Position numbers and translations under genes: made by a program. Under the pieces are notes generated by a model. The model did not search any database, was not told the DNA's origin, and saw only the letters and a list, made by a program, of their open reading frames with translations. A stretch of DNA of 19,524 nt from Armatimonadota bacterium (lineage in GTDB: Bacteria; Armatimonadota; Zipacnadia; Zipacnadales; UBA5352), in NCBI GenBank assembly GCA_034722055.1, contig JAYENL010000293.1:1-19524 (forward strand), in the 5' to 3' direction. The number at the start of each line of letters is the position of its first letter. Position 1 is the first letter of the stretch. Of this stretch, positions 2,943 to 19,517 are shown in pieces.

Positions 2943-3058
2943 TCCCATATTGGGGTGGCCAGTTCATCTCTGATGCTCCTACGAAGCACGCCTCACTGCG
3001 TGCGGGATATGTGCTGGCACCTCGTTAGACGGATAGGCGCACGATGGAGGCGGTGGTG

Positions 3059-4600
3059 ATGCGCGCTTCGTGGCTGACGCTCACTGCTGCGGTCACCGTC
3101 TCATTGGTTGCATCAGCGCAGCCAGCGGAGGAGCCAACTCCAGCGGAGGCCGGGCAGTTGCCCGGCCCTGCCTCGACGCAGCCCTTCACCGAGACCTTCG
3201 AGGCACAACCTCTGCAGGGCTGGGAGCTGACCCCCGGTATCCAGGTGCAGCAGGTCGGCCAGGGGCACGCCCTGGTGTTCGGCCAGCCGGGGGTAGCGTG
3301 GGCACCGGCCAGCGCACAGGACTTCGCTCTGTCATTCAAGTACCGGCCGGCTGGGGGAACGATGGAGGCGGTCGTCCGTGCCTCGGGGGAGCCGCCGAAT
3401 CAGCGCAGCTACCATGTGATGCTCATGCCGGGTGAGGTAGTGCTGCTCCGGGAGTTCGGCCAGGGCAACATGACGGAGCTGGGCGGCGCTCCCTGCCAGT
3501 TGCAGTCGGGCGCCTGGAATCAGATCGGGCTCCAGGTCAGCGGTGGGCAGCTTACGGTGTCGGTGGGCGGGCAGCAACTCATCACAGCCACTGATCCCCA
3601 GCCGCTGCCTGCGGGTGGCGTGGGGTTCATGTCCCAGCAGGGCGGAGACGCGATCGACGATGTCTCCCTCACGTCGGGAGCCGGCGGCGCGGCAACACCG
3701 ACGGCGACCACGACCGGCCAGCCTGCGACCGCGTCGGGGCAGCAGCCCGCCACTGGACCGGTGGTCCAGCCGACCGTGGTGCAGCCGGGCCAGCCCCCGA
3801 TCACCACCGCCCAGCCCGTCGGGGCCGCAACCATGAGCGAGACCTTCGAGGCACAACCTCTGCAGGGCTGGGAGCTGATGGACGGCGCATCGGTCGCCAA
3901 CGGCATGCTCACATTCCCCTCGGCGGGCCGGGCGCTGTGGTCGATCCCTCCCACGGCTGATCTCACTCTCAACCTCCAGCACAGGCCCGGCACAGGCCCT
4001 GGAGTGGTGAGCCTCTGCCTGTCTGGTCAGCCGCCGCAGGACCAGGGCTACGACCTGGTCTTCTTTCCGGGGGAGATGGCGATCGTCCGCCGCCAGGGCC
4101 AACAGGTGCAGGAGCTGGGGGCCGGGCCCATCCAGCTTCAGCCGAACGCCCTCAATGCCCTCTCCATCTCGCTCAGCAACGGGCAGTTCCAGATAGGCGT
4201 AGGCGGGCAGGTGGTGGTCCAGGCGACCGATCCGCAGCCCCTGGGTCCGGGCGCGGTGATACTGGGATGCCCGGACGGAGGGGGCGGGGCCTTTGATAAC
4301 GTGACGCTTGGCGCCGCTGGCGGCGTTGCGGCCCTGACCGGCCTGCCGGCGACTGCCCAGCAGCCCGGCCAGCAGCAGGCTCCGGCTACGGTCCCGACCG
4401 CGCAGCCCGGGCCGGGTCAGGCGCCCGTTCTGCAGCCCGTCCCCGGCCAGACACCCACGCTGCAGCCAGCCGGGGCCACGCTGTCGGAGAGCTTCGAGGG
4501 GCAGACGCAGGGCTGGGAGTTCATGGAGAACGCCCAGGTGCAGCAGGTCGGACAGGGCAATGCGCTGGTGTGCTCCGGACCGGGGCATGCCTTCTGGAGC
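3059..4600 (+). pseudogene. Secreted protein with tandem ConA/LamG-like (DUF1080-like) beta-sandwich repeats and Q/P/T/G linkers; truncated in the third repeat (frame stays open to 5119)
   Basis: GGAGG at 3046-3050 before ATG 3059; signal peptide MRASWLTLTAAVTVSLVASA; repeats begin ETFEAQPLQGWEL (twice) and ESFEGQTQGWEF; repeats 1 and 2 end GGVGF...IDDVSL and GAVIL...FDNVTL. After HAFW (~4597) the translation is simply the antisense of the next gene. Confidence 0.65.
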
Positions 4601-4606
4601 AGCCGC

Positions 4607-5923
4607 TCACTGCGCCCTGCCGGTCCGCTCGCGCAGCCACTGCACGCACTCGTCCCACGCCTGGACCTGCTGGGGCATGTAGTACAGCCCGCTCTCGCGC
4701 GGCTCATCTCGATCCGTGCGGAAGTTGGCCCCCGCGTAGACATTGATAACCGCCGCGCCCGCCTCAACCGCCGCCCGGAAGACCTCGCGGATGCGCTCCG
4801 GCGCGATGCCCTCCTGCTCACCGTAGTGGCACAGCTCCACTGTCGCGCCCCACCGCTTGCCCGCTCGCAGGGCCGCCTCGCGGAACGGCTCAAACCTGGT
4901 GCCGCTCATGTAGCCCGCAGAGATGATGTCCAGGTGTGGGAGGGCCGCGAGCTTGTCCAGATTCTGCCCCAGCTCCGTCTTGATCCACGTGACCGGCATG
5001 ATGTACATGCAGCCCCGCCAGCCGGGGCTCGCATCACAGGCCTGCGTGGCCACCGTCGTGGCGGAGTCCATCCAGGCGGCGTAAAGGTCCTCGCGCCAGG
5101 TATACCAGTGCTGCCATAGGGGGCTGTTCGGCCAGTCGTTGTCCTCCTGCAGGCGCGCCCGGTTCTGTTCGGTCAGGGGTACGGCGGGCAGCCCCTCGTT
5201 CGCCTGCCCTCCAGGCTCAACCACCACCGTAGTGACGGGAAAGCGCGCCTCGTCCGCGCCGGGGTAGTCATGCGCCGCGAGGTGGGCGCGGAACGAAGCC
5301 AGGCTCTCCTCGCTGTAGGTCGGGCTGGTCCAGTAGGTGCTGATGGGCTGGAACCAGAAGTTCTGCCCCGGCTGCCCGAGTATTATCTCGTCCTGGTAGA
5401 ACATCTCCAGAGGGCGGTCAACAAGCTCCAAGAGGCGGGACAGGCGGGCCTCGAACTCCTCCTGTGCGGCCTCGCTGCCGCAGTCCCATCGCCTGACGGC
5501 CACGAAGCTCCCATCCTCGGGGTCCAGACGCTCTGCGGCGAAGGCGAAGGCCTCCAGGTCATCGCCGCGGGGCAGCAGGCTGGGCCAATGCAGCCCGAAG
5601 ACGACATCGAGGCCATGCTCGTGGGCCAGGTCCACTATCAAACGCACGCGCTGAATCTCATCCGGCGCGTTCAGGCAGTCCTTCGTCCACGTGGGAACGC
5701 CGACCCACAGGGCGTCGGCGTGGCCAGCGATGTCGCGGATCGCGGGCTCGACCTCCTCCGGCTCGGCCTGGTAGTGACTCAGCGACGCTCCCACCACTGC
5801 GGTGATGGCCTCAGGGCGAATCTCCGACCGCTCCTGCGCGGTGACCGGGAGAATCATCACTGTCATCAGCACCAGCACTACGAGGCTGTGCGCCGCACAG
5901 GCGCGTAGGTGTTGCTGCAACAT
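4607..5923 (-). CDS. Secreted hypothetical protein, probable glycoside hydrolase-like TIM barrel
   Basis: ATG at 5923 with GGAGG upstream; signal peptide ...VLVLMTVMILPVTA-QE; motifs VDLAHEHGLDV, FYQDE, SEESLASFRAHL and WQHWYTWRED resemble GH42/GHL10-type proteins. Family is not certain. Confidence 0.6.
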   Translation of the reverse strand: MLQQHLRACAAHSLVVLVLMTVMILPVTAQERSEIRPEAITAVVGASLSHYQAEPEEVEPAIRDIAGHADALWVGVPTWTKDCLNAPDEIQRVRLIVDLAHEHGLDVVFGLHWPSLLPRGDDLEAFAFAAERLDPEDGSFVAVRRWDCGSEAAQEEFEARLSRLLELVDRPLEMFYQDEIILGQPGQNFWFQPISTYWTSPTYSEESLASFRAHLAAHDYPGADEARFPVTTVVVEPGGQANEGLPAVPLTEQNRARLQEDNDWPNSPLWQHWYTWREDLYAAWMDSATTVATQACDASPGWRGCMYIMPVTWIKTELGQNLDKLAALPHLDIISAGYMSGTRFEPFREAALRAGKRWGATVELCHYGEQEGIAPERIREVFRAAVEAGAAVINVYAGANFRTDRDEPRESGLYYMPQQVQAWDECVQWLRERTGRAQ

Positions 5924-6380
5924 GGCATTGCGCCTCCGAGTGGCAATGGTCTGCAGGACCTCCATGGCGGGACCCTGAGCGCGCCCCGTCTCCGCCTCGG
6001 GTGATTCGTCAACATCGATCTCGCGGTCCGCGGTCTTCATCCCGGATTACTCGCGGATGGATGCAATAGAAAGCGGCAGGAGCGTCGAGATCCGGTGGCA
6101 CCAGCCATAACGTCATATTCAGGAGAGGCCTGCCGTAGGCACACACTGCGACAGGCAGCAGGAGTTCTCCTTCCAGCATGGCACAGAGACCCGCGCCCGG
6201 TGCGGCCGTCATTGGTCTTCTGATGCTCGCGGGCACGCCTGGGCCGACCTGCAGCCTGCCATCGCGGGCAGGGGTGCATGCAGGACTGATCCTGCCGCCC
6301 GCCGAAGGTCCCATCGCTGGAGCGCAAGCATAGTGCGGTGGTAGCGGGCCTTGACGGAGGCGGTAGTCGTGAAGGCGGAG

Positions 6381-8977: not shown

Positions 8978-9093
8978 GCCGGATCCGGTGTCGGATGCCG
9001 CGCGGGCGGCTGAGACGGCCGACTGGACGCTCGATCCCAGTGACGGGCAGTGGCGTGGCCCGGAGAGCGGACCGTGAGTGTGAGGTGGCGGCG

Positions 9094-10539
9094 ATGTCAG
9101 ACACAGGCCTCACCATCGTGCAGCTCAACGACAGCCACGGGTACCTGGATCAGCACCTGGAGTGCTTCCGGGCGCAGGATGGGCTGCGCTACGCGCCGGC
9201 CGGGGGCTTCTCGCGCATCAAGCGCATCGTGGACGGCATCCGCCAGGAGACCGGCGGCAACACCCTCTTCCTCGACTGCGGGGACACCATCCATGGAACC
9301 TACGCGGCGGTCCAGAGCCGGGGCGAGGCCGTGATCCCCATCGCGAACGAGCTGGGGCTGGAGGCGTGGACGGCGCACTGGGAGTTCGCCTGGGGCCCTG
9401 AGCGCCTCAAAGAGATCGCAGCGCTGATGGACCACCCCCTGCTGGCTATCAACTGCTACGACGAGGAGACCGATGAGCGGGTGTTCGAGCCGTGGATCGT
9501 GCGGGAGGTGGCCGGCCTGCGCCTGGGGATCATCGGGATCGCGGCCACCATCGTGGACAAGACCATGCCCGATCAGTTCAGCGAGGGTATCTACCTCACG
9601 GTGGGCGGCGAGGAGGTCCGCATCGGGATCGAGGCTCTGCGCGGCGACGAGGACTGCGACCTGATCCTTGTCATCTCGCACCTGGGCTTCCCGCAGGACG
9701 CGAAGCTCGCCGCGACCGTGGAGGGCATCGACGTGCTGGTGTCGGGGCACACGCACAACCGTATGTTCCGCCCGCACGTGGTCAACGACACCATCATCTT
9801 CCAGTCCGGCTGCCACGGCTCATTCCTGGGGCGGCTGGACCTGACCGTGAGAGACGGCGAGATTGCCGGCTTCGATCATGAGCTGATCGTGGTGGATGAG
9901 CGCATCGAGCCTGACTGGGAGCTGCAGGGGCTCGTGCGGACGGTCGAGGAGCCTGACGCGGAGATGCTGGCGGAGATCGTGGGGGAGACGCGCATCGGCC
10001 TGCCGCGCGTTCGGGCGACCGAGTCCACGATGGACAACCTGCTGCTGGATGGGTTGCTGCACGCCACTGGTGCGCAGATGGCGTTCTCGAACGGCTGGCG
10101 CTACGGCGCGCCCATCGCCCCGGGACCCATCACGCTCGGCGACCTGTGGAACATCATCCCGGTGAACCCGCCGGTCTCCACCTGCACTCTCACGGGCGCG
10201 GAGCTGCGGGAGATGCTGGAGGAGAACCTGCACCGCACATTCGCCGCCGATCCCTGGGAGCAGATGGGCGGGTACATCAAGCGGTGTGCGGGACTGACGT
10301 GCTACTTCAAGGCTGAGAACCCGGAGGGCGCGCGCATCCAGGAGCTTTTCGTTGAGGGACGCCATGTGCGTGACGATGACGAGTTCGACGTGGCCTTCGT
10401 CACCACACAGGGCGTGCCAGCGAAGTACGGGTGGGACCGCGAGGACCTGGACCTCCGGGCCATCGACGCGCTGCGGGATCACCTGGCCGAGGCCAGCCCC
10501 GTGGAGCCAGCGCTGCAAGGCGCCTTCGTGGCGGTTTGA
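9094..10539 (+). CDS. Bifunctional metallophosphatase/5'-nucleotidase family protein (SoxB-like), cytoplasmic
   Basis: LNDSHG, DCGDTIHGT, TAHWEF, SHLG and SGHTH metal motifs; 5'-nucleotidase C-terminal domain (AFSNGWRYG). ATG at 9094 follows GAGGTG; no signal peptide. Confidence 0.85.
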   Translation: MSDTGLTIVQLNDSHGYLDQHLECFRAQDGLRYAPAGGFSRIKRIVDGIRQETGGNTLFLDCGDTIHGTYAAVQSRGEAVIPIANELGLEAWTAHWEFAWGPERLKEIAALMDHPLLAINCYDEETDERVFEPWIVREVAGLRLGIIGIAATIVDKTMPDQFSEGIYLTVGGEEVRIGIEALRGDEDCDLILVISHLGFPQDAKLAATVEGIDVLVSGHTHNRMFRPHVVNDTIIFQSGCHGSFLGRLDLTVRDGEIAGFDHELIVVDERIEPDWELQGLVRTVEEPDAEMLAEIVGETRIGLPRVRATESTMDNLLLDGLLHATGAQMAFSNGWRYGAPIAPGPITLGDLWNIIPVNPPVSTCTLTGAELREMLEENLHRTFAADPWEQMGGYIKRCAGLTCYFKAENPEGARIQELFVEGRHVRDDDEFDVAFVTTQGVPAKYGWDREDLDLRAIDALRDHLAEASPVEPALQGAFVAV

Positions 10540-10807: not shown

Positions 10808-11173
10808 CCGCGCGCTACGGGAACGGCAGCTACAGGCCTCAAGCCACAACCTCCAAGCTTAAGGCTGAACTCCCACGCCGTACGGATCGGCGGCGTGCCC
10901 ACGCCGCCCGCCGTTGATGCCGTTGCCCGCGGTCGTTCCCGCGCCGTGTGGAGGGGCCGGACGACTGTCCGGCCCGCCGTTGCCAGCAACGACGGCGGGC
11001 TGGGCAGCCCGCCGCTCCGTACGACAGAACAGCAAACGACAGGCGCGGCACAGGTCCGCGCGCTACGGGAACGCCAGCTACAGGCCTCAAGCCACAACCT
11101 CCAAGCTTAAGGCTGAACGCCCACGCCGCCCGCCGTTGATGCCGTTGCCCGCGGTCGTTCCCGCGCCGTGTGG
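10808..11173. repeat. Direct repeat A: 10808-10951 and 11056-11173
   Basis: Near-identical copies (ccgcgcgctacgggaacg...gcgccgtgtgg); the second copy lacks 26 bp. Confidence 0.95.
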
Positions 11174-11560
11174 ATCGGGATAAGGCGGGGGCTTTCGCCC
11201 CCACCTCCCCCCTTCGAACCGCACGTGCGCTACTCACGCATGCGGCTCCCGTCCAGCTAGCCCGAAACGGGCGAGAAGATCGGGGCATTGGCATGTCCAT
11301 CGGAGTTGGCTGAAAGCCAACTCCTCCGACCATGCCGACGGCAGCTACCGGACAGGCCCTCGTGTCGGGCTTCGGAGAGCCCCTGCACCCTCGCCCACCT
11401 GCCCGGCCGTCATCCGTTCGCGTGTGCTTCGGCCTTTGTCGCCGACCCTTCACCTCCGGCCTCGCGCCCTCAGGCTGCCTTTGACTACGGAGGCTTCCAC
11501 ATCACACGAGTACCTCCGGTTGGACTCCAACCAACTGGATACGTGCGCTGCGAGGCGCAC
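11174..11560 (-). mobile_element. ORF-less group II intron or intron-derived element, 387 nt
   Basis: Minus strand begins GTGCG and ends CCCGAT. DV is GAGCCGCATGCGTGAGTAGCGCACGTGCGGTTC (11248-11216; AGC triad, AC bulge). DVI is a GAAA-capped stem with a bulged A at -8 (11181). alpha-alpha' is CTCGTGT/ACACGAG. EBS1 AGGG matches the 5' exon end CCCT. Confidence 0.9.
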
Positions 11561-12041
11561 AGGGGCGGGCTTCCTTGCCCGCCCGGTCGTTCGGGGGCAT
11601 CCAGTCGTTCGCAAGGGCGGGCAAGGGCGCCCGCCCGCAGAGAAGCGGGTGGGGCCGTTGCCCAGCCGTTTGGAGGGAGCCGGTCTCCGTCCCGGCCCGG
11701 TCGTCGTCGTTCGGCGTTGAGCCAACGCCGGGCGGCGCACGGACAGGAGTGTCCGTGCCACCGAACAGCGGCGCTTGCCGTGCCGTGAGGAGGGGCGGGC
11801 TTGTGTCCAGCGACGAGCTACGAGTCACGAGCTACCAGCCACGGAAACGACCACGTCGCTGGTCGCCGCGCTTCCTTGACCGCTCGAGGTCGTCAGGAGG
11901 GGCGGGCTTCCTTGCCCGCCCGGTCGTTCGGGGGCATCCAGTCGTTCGCAAGGGCGGGCGAGGGCGCCCGCCCCCAGAGAAGCGGGTAGGGCCGTTGCCC
12001 AGCCGTTTGGAGGGAGCCGGTCTCCGTCCCGGCCCGGTCGT
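11561..12041. repeat. Direct repeat B: 11561-11704 and 11898-12041, built from REP-like hairpins
   Basis: Two 144-bp copies with 3 mismatches, each starting AGGGGCGGGCTTCCTTGCCCGCCC. Confidence 0.95.
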
Positions 12042-12049
12042 TCCTGACC

Positions 12050-14599
12050 TCACCGCCCGGCCCCCGCCACCAGCTCCGCCCCCACGCCCTGTGCCCTGGA
12101 CGGCACTACGCGCACCCGCGAGCCGTCCGTGACCAGCGTGATCTGCCCGGAGAGATCGGTCCGCAGCAGCCGTATTCCTCGCTGACCGAGCACCGCCCGC
12201 GCCTCCGCCGTGATGTAGCGGTCGGCCGTATGGTCGCACGAGACCAGCGCCCAGGCCGGCGCCACCGCGTCAAGCAGCGGCGCCATCCCGGCCAGGCCGC
12301 GGCCGTGATGCGGAAGGACGAGCGCCTCTGCGGCCAGCGACCGCCCCGTCGAGCGAGCGTCCCGGAGCAGTCGCACCATGCCCGGCTGCTGCAGGTCGCC
12401 GGTGAACAGCACGCGGACGTCATCGCATCGAAGCATCGCCACCACGGAGTTGTTGTTCGCGTCATCGCTGGTCCCCGACAGGTACGGCAGCCTGGGCTCG
12501 AGCAGCTCCACTCGAGCGTTGTCACCCAGGCGGAGGACGTCCCCGGCGCCTGCGGGCGTCGCCGGCAGGCGGCTGACCCACGCCGGGGCCGTGGCGTCGG
12601 GAAGCTGCGGCGGGGCGATGAGTCTCGCCACCCGGACGCGCCTCATCACCTCCGGCAGCGCGTTGCAGTGATCGGTCTCCCAATGGGTGATGATCACTGC
12701 GTCGAGGCGCGTGATCCGCCGGGCCGAGAGGAAGGGCAGGACCACGGCCTCCGCCACCTCACGCCCTCCGCCAGGCACCCCGCTACCACCGCCGCAGTCG
12801 ATCATCACGGCGGCATCATCAGGCGTCCTGACCACCGCGCACTGTCCGGCACCGACCGGCAGCAGCGTGATCTCCACGTGCCGTGGCGCCGCTGAGTGGA
12901 CCAGATAGGTGGCGGCGAGCAGGCAGACGACGACGAAGCCGCTCACAGCGGGCAAGTTCGGGTGCATCCGCAGCAGGGCCTCGTCAAGCTTCCGGTGGGC
13001 GAGGCTGAACCCGCCGAGCACCACGGCCACCGCCACCGCCCCATACCACAACACACAGGCTCCAAGACCCATGTGCAGCTCGGGAACGAAGGCCACCGGC
13101 AGCGAGGCGGCCAGCCAGTTCACGTGCATCACCACCGCCAGCAGGCCGCGGGCCAGCCAGCACAGCACGCTCAGCAGCGGCGACAGCGGGGAGAAGAGCG
13201 CGATCGGAAGAGCCACGAACCCCAGCACCATGATCGCGACCGAGAGCGGCACGTTCGCCAGGTTCGCCAGGTTCCCGCTGACGGCGAAGCCGGACACGCT
13301 GTGCGCCAGCAGCGGGGTGGTCATCACCCATGCGCCAAAGGTCCCCCACAGCACCGCCCGCGGTGCGGTCACCGGCCAGGACGCCCGAGTCCCGTCGATG
13401 CGCTGAAGGGGCTCTCCCGGAAGGAAGAGGGCGACGCCCAGGGTGGCGGCGAAGGTGAGCTGGAAGCTGAGGCTCAGCAGCGCCTGGGCGTCGAAGACGC
13501 AGATGAGGGCCGCGGCCAGGCCGATGGAGGTGAAGATGTCGTAGTCCCGGCGCGTCAGCCCCGCCAGCATCACCACCGCGAACATGCCCACCGCGCGGGA
13601 CACCGACGCCTCCATCCCCACGATGAGCACCAGGATCGCCACACCCGCCCCGGCCAGCCCCACCTGCCACCATCGCAGCCCGTGGAAGCCGACGCCGGTG
13701 AGGCCCACGATGGCCACCGCAATCATGGAGATCTGGGCGCCGGAGACCACCAGCAGATGCACCGTGCCCGCGCGGCGGAACTGCTCCACGATCGTGTCCG
13801 GCAGCGGCGCCGCCTCCAGGCCGTAGACCATGCCGACGAAGAGGCGCGAGTACAGCCCTGCATCAGCCCCGGGCATGGCGCGGCTGATGGAGCCCATCAC
13901 CCGCCGGCGCAGGCCCAGCCCCGCCCGCGCCAGCCACAGGCGCCAGCCGCGCTCCTCCCCCATCCTTCTGGCCTCGCGTGCAGAGATCATGGCCCGCACG
14001 CCCTGCGTGGCCAGCCATGCCCGGTAGTCGAACTGCCCGGGAAGCTCGGCCGCCGGGGGCTTCTCCACCGAGGCTCGGCCCAGCCGAACACGGTCGCCCA
14101 GCGCAAGCGCCGGCTCCAGTGGCAGGCGGGCCTCGGCCGTGCCGCCGGCCGCGATGACCGCGCCCGACCTGGTATCACGGACGCGCTCCACCCGAAGGCG
14201 CAGCCGGCGCCGCCACCCGCGCTGCTCGGGCGAGGTGATGGCGACGCCCTCCACCACAGCGTCGTGCATGCCCGTCAGGTGGGAGATGTCATCACCGGGG
14301 ACGGCGGTCTGGACGGCGTAGATGAAGCCGCCCAGGCAGAGGAAGCAGCCCAGCAGCGGAGCGAGCGAGACATCGGCCGCCACGCGTGAGCCGACCAGCG
14401 ACAGCACCGCGCACGCCGCACACCCCACTGCCAGGGGCAGAGGCGAGGCGGCCAGCAGGTGGGCCAGCGCCATCCCGCAGATCAGTGCCACGGAGCACAG
14501 CAGCAGCGGGCGATGGCGGATCTCGACGATCGCCTGCCTGGCACGTGCGCCGGCGTTCGCAGTCTGCCCGTCCTGGCTGTCGGCTGGGCCTGTCATCAT
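12050..14599 (-). CDS. comEC: DNA internalization competence protein ComEC/Rec2 (OB/DUF4131 + Competence + MBL domains)
   Basis: PGQFDYRAWL; FRRAGTVHLLVVSG; SFQLTFAAT; MBL-like ITHWETDH, NNNSVV, LFTGDL, PHHG; RTDLSGQI. Confidence 0.92.
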   Translation of the reverse strand: MMTGPADSQDGQTANAGARARQAIVEIRHRPLLLCSVALICGMALAHLLAASPLPLAVGCAACAVLSLVGSRVAADVSLAPLLGCFLCLGGFIYAVQTAVPGDDISHLTGMHDAVVEGVAITSPEQRGWRRRLRLRVERVRDTRSGAVIAAGGTAEARLPLEPALALGDRVRLGRASVEKPPAAELPGQFDYRAWLATQGVRAMISAREARRMGEERGWRLWLARAGLGLRRRVMGSISRAMPGADAGLYSRLFVGMVYGLEAAPLPDTIVEQFRRAGTVHLLVVSGAQISMIAVAIVGLTGVGFHGLRWWQVGLAGAGVAILVLIVGMEASVSRAVGMFAVVMLAGLTRRDYDIFTSIGLAAALICVFDAQALLSLSFQLTFAATLGVALFLPGEPLQRIDGTRASWPVTAPRAVLWGTFGAWVMTTPLLAHSVSGFAVSGNLANLANVPLSVAIMVLGFVALPIALFSPLSPLLSVLCWLARGLLAVVMHVNWLAASLPVAFVPELHMGLGACVLWYGAVAVAVVLGGFSLAHRKLDEALLRMHPNLPAVSGFVVVCLLAATYLVHSAAPRHVEITLLPVGAGQCAVVRTPDDAAVMIDCGGGSGVPGGGREVAEAVVLPFLSARRITRLDAVIITHWETDHCNALPEVMRRVRVARLIAPPQLPDATAPAWVSRLPATPAGAGDVLRLGDNARVELLEPRLPYLSGTSDDANNNSVVAMLRCDDVRVLFTGDLQQPGMVRLLRDARSTGRSLAAEALVLPHHGRGLAGMAPLLDAVAPAWALVSCDHTADRYITAEARAVLGQRGIRLLRTDLSGQITLVTDGSRVRVVPSRAQGVGAELVAGAGR

Positions 14600-19400: not shown

Positions 19401-19517
19401 TGTCGTACGGAGGGCTGGCCTGCCTAGGCCAGCCGTCGCGCGAAGCGCGACTGTCGTTCCAGCGCACCCTCAACGGCACGGCATCTTGGGCCGGCCTCCT
19501 CCGGGTGCTTCGCACCC
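19401..19517. repeat. REP-like hairpin cluster
   Basis: tgtcgtacGGAG-GGCTGGCCT-gcct-AGGCCAGCC; GTCGCGC-gaa-GCGCGAC; GGGTGC-ttc-GCACCC. Confidence 0.6.

Follow-up and report, generated by a model that had tools for sequence, protein, structure and literature searches.

A decayed group II intron in a REP element and its relatives at dispersed palindromic repeats

Between two convergent genes of an Armatimonadota bacterium, a group II intron interrupts the conserved foot of a REP hairpin (the window, that is, the whole stretch of DNA analysed here, comprises 19,524 nt of contig JAYENL010000293.1). Does this insertion reflect an intron lineage specialised on REP elements, as an earlier note on this DNA had proposed? 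We consider it probable that the element is a dead copy from an unclassified clade whose members read a DNA hairpin, use a 5-nt EBS1 plus EBS3, and carry an EBS1 matched to a repeat family of their host. Below, G000 is the window's own genome and C plus number one of its contigs; G plus number is a relative's genome, L plus number a relative's intron locus and X plus number a sequencing run.

The interrupted REP and its surroundings

The features of the locus and of the relic are as follows.

8995..10539, plus strand, left flanking gene, 5'-nucleotidase-like (PF02872, PF00149)
10950..10975, plus strand, intact REP, second variant, with a left flank (10897-10952) that is the same as the relic's (11119-11174)
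11172..11173, plus strand, the GG of the REP foot, with IBS3 at 11173
11174..11560, minus strand, 387-nt relic of a group II intron, deleted internally and bounded precisely by GUGCG and AU
11174..11212, minus strand, domain VI (DVI) with bulged A and 3' AU
11216..11248, minus strand, domain V (DV), full length, AGC triad, 5-nt loop
11257..11295, minus strand, IEP remnant ahead of DV: the final 12 codons and the stop codon
11296..11324, minus strand, deletion junction zone, holding a single-copy 23-nt palindrome (11302-11324)
11321..11560, minus strand, domain I (DI) up to the deletion, matching positions 1-245 of a 518-position profile of 39 full-length relatives
11345, minus strand, EBS3 (G), partner of C at 11173, the base that opens the 3' exon
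11380..11384, minus strand, EBS1 (AGGGG, 5 nt), pairing with exon positions -1 to -5
11504..11510, minus strand, putative alpha strand, complementary to alpha' (11359-11365), assigned from complementarity and alignment
11561..11584, plus strand, interrupted REP: foot AG and 8-bp hairpin (11563-11584); IBS1 is 11561-11565 on the minus strand
11672..12040, plus strand, BIME-like mosaic with additional REP copies, imperfect or incomplete, at 11672, 11789 and 12009
11896..11921, plus strand, uninterrupted REP of the same sequence as the one split by the relic, within a 144-nt duplicate
12050..14599, minus strand, right flanking gene, ComEC-like (PF03772, PF13567, PF00753)
19409..19434, plus strand, isolated REP with the same type of foot

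The alpha-alpha' naming and the placement of J2/3 used below follow what we take to be general group II anatomy.

Removal of 11174-11560 restores GG|AGGGG and the 8-bp hairpin without target duplication, in agreement with the earlier note. The right flank of the restored site corresponds to the intact REP at 11896, as also noted there, the two lying in copies of the 144-nt repeat (11898-12041 and 11561-11704) that are 98% identical. All six GGAGGG sites listed in that note are present, those at 11672 and 12009 being imperfect and that at 11789 partial.

The hairpins interrupted here are REPs, as had been supposed. REPs are described as short hairpins with a tetranucleotide foot (PMC3733652, PMC6006769), and the window's target family combines such a foot and short hairpin with high copy number: GGAGGG followed by a stem of at least 7 bp occurs at 416 sites on 151 contigs of G000, compared to 37 in the reversed-genome control. 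Two of the six Y1-transposase genes of G000 (on C256 and C30), scored against the REP-associated tyrosine transposase (RAYT) model NCBIfam NF047646, reached 93.8 and 91.3 bits (cut-off 80), and both are bordered on each side by GGAG hairpins in mixed orientation. The Y1-transposase genes on C193, C100 and C256 are located between long direct repeats of REP-containing modules. Elsewhere in the window, positions 1-812 at the contig start encode a tyrosine recombinase (PF00589), and a plus-strand secreted repeat-domain ORF (3044-5119) seems to meet an overlapping minus-strand ORF (4607-6040) near 4600, possibly a truncation or an assembly join.

The only other 5' end of the intron in G000, a 76-nt stub (C314:119-194) with a 100% identical 5' end, is also located at |AGGGG, in the same hairpin family. 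The stub is followed by modules of the type found at 11672-11885.

The history of the site itself is less simple than the clean restoration would suggest. When both flanks were considered, the restored site had no match elsewhere in the G000 assembly at any of five flank lengths, a point that the earlier note had missed, together with the internal deletion of the element. In both of its other copies the 16-nt left flank continues into a REP variant other than the one at the relic; the right 30 nt recur in seven other copies, never after the relic's left flank. Since the restored site is unique and its flanks derive from different repeat modules, the relic may join two neighbouring insertions: two introns in adjacent REP modules, one contributing its 5' portion and its neighbour its 3' portion to a deletion product, in which case the 'restored' REP never existed. 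The surroundings (10808-11174 and 11561-12041) indeed form a BIME-like mosaic of duplicated modules of 73, 56 and 144 nt. However, the REP modules are mosaic in any case, which makes a unique combination unremarkable. We regard such a fusion as a serious possibility, somewhat short of an even chance. It is compatible with the explanation we favour and would imply that GG|AG was hit a third time. Among the joints listed for four contig runs, none bypassed 11174-11560, which does not decide the history of the site.

Target choice among the relatives

Relatives were collected with a single 5'-end pattern and therefore form a biased sample. Genome records yielded 30 matching loci, 27 of them Armatimonadota-type, from 11 records; metagenomes yielded 78 stretches and viral contigs no match. 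De-duplication left 102 junctions, of which 95 entered the hairpin count, seven being too short or redundant.

A hairpin ending at most 8 nt from the splice site was found at 82 of the 95 junctions, compared to about 12 in shuffles (maximum 17); the remaining 13 sites had no qualifying hairpin. Control windows placed 40 nt upstream contained a hairpin in 16 of 88 cases, and the same 88 at the junction in 76. The gap between hairpin and splice site was 3-5 nt in 65 of the 82. T-tracts were present at only five of these 82 sites and A-tracts ahead of the stem at none, so a reading of the targets as terminators was rejected. At the relic's site, IBS1 overlaps the 8-bp stem by three bases, so that 5 bp remain, and no other arrangement is as frequent in the clade (38/95).

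All four bases of the EBS1 tetramer paired with the exon in 52 of 65 introns (shuffle mean 7.7, maximum 17), and the 65 carry 32 distinct tetramers between them; this count omits duplicates and the loci with deleted DI (L015, L036, L042, L055) and includes L039 and L128. Position by position, with L039, L128 and exons shorter than 20 nt also left out, Watson-Crick pairs were observed at positions 1-5 in 62, 49, 63, 61 and 54 of 66 introns (shuffle means 19-26, maximum at most 38), while position 6 was at chance level. These five columns were the top five in a co-variation scan of all columns. The hairpin, EBS1 and EBS3 counts are not phylogenetically independent, and the shuffle controls overstate significance because kin introns were counted. 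The AGGG proposed as a putative 4-nt EBS1 in the earlier note falls in the aligned EBS1 column (11384-11381) and co-varies with the target; its length has to be corrected to 5 nt, the fifth paired base being 11380. Of the 42 introns having both ends, 38 have an EBS3 that pairs with the base opening the 3' exon. Between exon positions -7 and -18 no contiguous complementarity suggestive of an EBS2-IBS2 interaction was detected, the strongest isolated signal having a z of 5.3, compared to 8.1-9.9 for EBS1.

Four introns (L091, L128, L066 and L191) sit directly 3' of the DVI hairpin of another intron, which suggests that a DVI hairpin can act as target stem for members of the clade.

The sequence of the foot is much less constant than its position. 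Only 4 of the 95 junctions read |AGGG and 20 read (G)|TAG, GAG or TGG, giving 24 GTAG-type feet in total, while 71 carry other feet. GG|AG is thus not the conserved target that had been supposed, and alignment of the relatives' flanks, the check proposed at the time, gave co-variation of EBS1 with the target without insertion always at GG|AG or GT|AG. The foot strand starts with TAG, GAG or TGG in 7 of 12 sites of the relic's nearest IEP subclade. One relative from a second study (X5) differs from the relic by two EBS1 bases and reads UAGG, that is, the G|TAG version.

We examined whether the occupied hairpins belong to repeat families in six relatives' genomes (G332, G357, G082, G387, G359 and G031) of the nine with a 5' end (G242, G247 and G317 were left out), using patterns designed from the intron flanks; backward-pattern controls gave 0-1 matches. 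Matches numbered 69, 125 (overlaps double-counted), 51, 11, 26 and 4, respectively. The occupied hairpin was a member of a dispersed palindrome family in all six, and each family was absent or nearly so in the other genomes tested, and thus largely host-specific. RAYT-like loci were flanked by target repeats in 2 of 10 cases in G332 and in 1 of 5 (below cut-off) in G359. Because such flanking was absent in G357 (0/4) and G082 (0/7), and no RAYT match was obtained in G387, the targets are demonstrably REPs in the strict sense for part of the clade only. Taken together, these results support dispersed short palindromes, often true REPs, as the targets of the clade. The proposal of a REP-specialised lineage therefore stands for dispersed palindromic repeats with few T-tails, and has to be relaxed for the foot.

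How far do the introns follow these repeats? They could simply belong to the g6/U1/U2 surroundings of class C and insert behind any stem with a matching IBS1. REP-like repeats would then be hit only for being tolerated and more numerous than other hairpins in GC-rich genomes, and EBS1 would not track host repeats adaptively. Introns of g6, U1 and U2 are indeed found right after predicted terminators, L- or I-shaped without preference (Miura 2022, PMC8919778), and the nearest sister group of the clade includes an intron that Miura labels 'Unclassified'. The abundance of non-GTAG feet points in the same direction, as does a second group II intron of G000, class C by its RNA features and with a CGC triad, which has a REP foot close by at three of its ten sites, so that REP use is not exclusive to the clade. 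Against such indifference stand the multi-copy, genome-private target family in every relative tested, the feet of the relic's own IEP subclade, and the rarity of T-tracts. A sister intron in G141 argues likewise: its EBS1 is GUAG, and the two non-tandem sites examined both have it at |GTAG, one site belonging to a family of seven copies. We rate hairpin targeting without repeat tracking as possible, though rather doubtful.

The CGC-triad intron of G000 is multi-copy, its body and IEP being unassembled, and its ends lie mostly at contig breaks (14 3' ends and 10 5' ends):

3' ends, at G000 contig ends: C7, C11, C46, C59, C65, C105, C173, C251, C274, C280, C286, C299, C314, C318
5' ends: C3, C17, C20, C54, C81, C104, C238, C248, C259, C323

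One of its copies ends 77 nt upstream of the C314 stub. An isolated DV/DVI relic of a third intron (C121:3777-3844, minus strand), 79% like the 3' end of the window relic, lies just past a gene.

Anatomy and class of the intron

Over DV and DVI the element matches Rfam Intron_gpII (RF00029; 11174-11250, 43.7 bits, gathering score 40), and it carries the group II hallmarks GUGYG...AY, DV and a DVI with bulged A. Its DI (11321..11560) is 79-81% identical to those of L063 and L074. The profile of the first 520 nt of the 39 full-length relatives matches nt 1-240 only, and five motifs of the DI-closing, DII, J2/3 and DIII regions, found in 36, 39, 34, 39 and 26 of these 39 relatives, are all absent, so that six-domain completeness is lacking. 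At the junction zone the DI basal 3' strand, DII, J2/3, DIII and the ORF are missing. Since the closest full-length relative, L063 (1978 nt), could be aligned to nt 1-236 and 289-387 only, about 1.6 kb would have been lost. The junction is bridged by contigs of runs X2 and X3 with 0-1 differences (one study, possibly the source sample). A variant contig of X2/X3 over 11406-11532 differs by five substitutions and, at 11430, by an insertion of 5 nt, the length by which the relic falls short of its relatives at that point; it possibly represents a less decayed copy from the same population.

J2/3 contributes to the catalytic pocket of group II introns (PMC3753933), and its loss suggests that the relic is splicing-incompetent. 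What had been taken for an active intron thus appears, as judged by its sequence, to be a dead copy, probably unable to splice or move. Decay by internal deletion recurs in the clade: L036 and L055 have lost EBS1, and L076, L092, L097, L103, L106 and L114 are deleted to ~730-990 nt.

Could the element nonetheless function as an ORF-less mini-intron, with a related IEP providing for its splicing and mobility in trans? Such introns are known (PMC4424553), and the precise ends, the intact EBS1, EBS3, DV and bulged A of DVI, a folding z-score of -5.0 and the identical second 5' end on C314 would all suit this role. The absence of J2/3, DII, DIII and the closing strand of DI speaks against it, as does the single copy, the second being a mere stub; we consider it very unlikely. 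A search of the G000 assembly, 92.7% complete, turned up no cognate IEP (best matches 38% and 33% identical), which is weak evidence since the IEP of the multi-copy class C intron is unassembled as well. The 38%-identical RT match lies directly 5' of a cas1-like ORF (by eye). An RT gene followed by cas1- and cas2-like ORFs (by eye) at C318:15350-17635 is possibly an RT-associated CRISPR adaptation module. The relic had no match in any of 12 genomes of the same family.

The class of the intron was approached through the IEPs of the relatives (465 aa, TIGR04416, RT and maturase), the relic having none. Trees, for which Toro 2013 (PMC3552965) supplied reference accessions, were quick searches with SH-aLRT support only. 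The 46 clade IEPs group together (SH-aLRT 99; 100 in a reduced tree with 14 of the 46, from which L143, L151, L158, L166, L171 and L184 were dropped as long branches or duplicates), and 13 class C IEPs form a separate group (SH-aLRT 100). The sister group (SH-aLRT 90) includes the intron of NZ_CP022993, 'Unclassified' in Miura's table, whose IEP is ~45% identical to those of the clade. The clade may belong to, or neighbour, Miura's U1/U2.

A CGC triad in DV is a criterion of class C (PMC7923331). The class C references have it, while the relic and the clade IEP loci with a recognised DV have AGC. Together with the separate IEP clade and five co-varying EBS1 pairs (54/66 at the fifth), this led us to reject the class IIC membership implied in the earlier note: the clade works like IIC introns yet lies outside class C. 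An ordinary class C intron behind a terminator-like hairpin is the reading to which we give least credence: the compact DI, the upstream hairpin, the lack of EBS2 signal, an En-minus IEP, a weak Rfam match (group-II-D1D4-3, 25.5 bits, below the cut-off of 32) and the best PDB sequence matches (7uim, 5hhj and 5hhl, which we take to be IIC, and 6ar1, labelled GsI-IIC RT) fit it, but the AGC triad, the 5-bp EBS1, the placement of the IEPs and the missing T-tract do not. Assignment to class E/F from the 5-nt DV loop was also rejected, most full-length members having other loops and no EBS2 signal; the g1, g2 and g3 reference IEPs branch elsewhere on a tree whose tips include no g6 or class E reference.

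A proposed explanation and its place among known systems

The explanation we favour, a dead copy from an unclassified clade with EBS1 matched to host repeats, could be pictured as follows. The ancestor would have been an En-minus group II intron of ~1.9-2.1 kb from a clade mainly found in Armatimonadota. Its members combine a compact IIC-like DI and a complete DV of AGC triad with EBS3 and an EBS1 of 5 nt, give no EBS2 signal, and insert with a DNA hairpin of 5-7 bp directly against IBS1. By analogy with class C, a lariat-IEP particle may grip the stem by its shape in single-stranded DNA, read 5+1 bases via EBS1 and EBS3 and reverse-splice without duplication, reverse transcription then being primed at a replication fork (PMC10190682, PMC4424553). 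Since the strand opposite a REP reads as a hairpin plus the complement of the conserved foot, a REP family would offer hundreds of identical intergenic targets, and an EBS1 matching the resident repeat family of the host would then be favoured. For G000, EBS1 AGGGG and EBS3 G would select GG|AG of the GGAG family, and the window copy would afterwards have lost its ~1.6 kb.

A bolder version sees in the clade a distinct, non-class-C intron class that parasitises REP/RAYT-type palindromes with an AGC domain, IIC-style stem recognition and a re-tunable 5+1-nt guide, repeatedly switched per host; here our opinion is evenly divided. If true, this would add a fourth target specificity to the three that a review gives for bacterial introns, namely homing sites, terminators and attC (PMC4424553). 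The stem-loop motif in the DNA is said in a structural paper to be exclusive to IIC introns (PMC10190682), an exclusivity that would no longer hold if introns outside class C combine an AGC triad with 5 bp of EBS1 pairing and a short abutting stem. The clade would be a candidate intermediate between IIC and IIB recognition and a natural test of how EBS2 replaced the stem, and its 32 natural EBS1 variants would provide a co-variation map for a retroelement programmable by structure plus sequence. The clade would moreover connect introns with REP/RAYT, both of them selfish systems; an insertion cuts the REP guide tetranucleotide in two and should inactivate that REP for its transposase. The window copy itself is a fossil, and the value lies in the clade.

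The earlier note had ventured that this target class was undescribed. The accessible text of PMC12584367, PMC7923331 and one bioRxiv preprint describes no REP-targeting lineage, and no description of a REP-specialised or repeat-tracking one was found in the literature searched, whose scope leaves out most subscription papers. There is precedent, however, for hairpin-adjacent non-C introns and for incidental REP insertions: besides the g6/U1/U2 introns past predicted terminators (PMC8919778), of nine P. putida group II introns, the table of Tobes and Pareja 2006 locates two at REPs, a partial association (PMC1525189).

Among known introns, the clade most resembles class C in that an upstream DNA stem replaces EBS2-IBS2, EBS1 is short and accompanied by EBS3, DI is compact, the IEP is En-minus and the sites are intergenic (PMC10190682, PMC4424553, PMC7923331). 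It differs from class C by its AGC triad with full-length DV, its 5-bp EBS1 (a structure of the E.r. IIC intron has a discontinuous fifth EBS1-IBS1 pair; PMC10190682), its separate IEP clade, and a stem of 5-7 bp abutting IBS1 instead of a ~12-bp stem and a spacer; several class C references (by eye) have longer stems and T-rich tails, rare in the clade. Like the clade, the U1/U2 and g6 groups adjoin class C on IEP trees, g6 having class C-like RNA (Toro 2014, PMC4244168), but their available descriptions include no RNA anatomy, EBS1 co-variation or repeat targeting comparable to those reported here (PMC8919778, PMC4244168). Classes E and F (IIE/IIF) share small IIB-like ribozymes and, with the relic, the 5-nt DV loop (PMC3753933), but they have EBS2-IBS2 and no described hairpin target.

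On the side of the target, the repeats resemble GTAG-family REPs with RAYT (TnpA-REP) genes in having a short hairpin preceded on its 5' side by a tetranucleotide foot, in their clustering and numerous copies, and in flanking RAYT genes (PMC3733652, PMC6006769), although the foot in the window is GGAG, a word absent from the text of Di Nocera. REPs also serve as abundant intergenic landing sites for the insertion sequences ISPpu9/10, ISPa11 and ISPsy8 (PMC1525189). These use DNA transposases, with a 3-bp duplication in the case of ISPsy8, whereas the clade would reach the same kind of site by RNA-guided reverse splicing.
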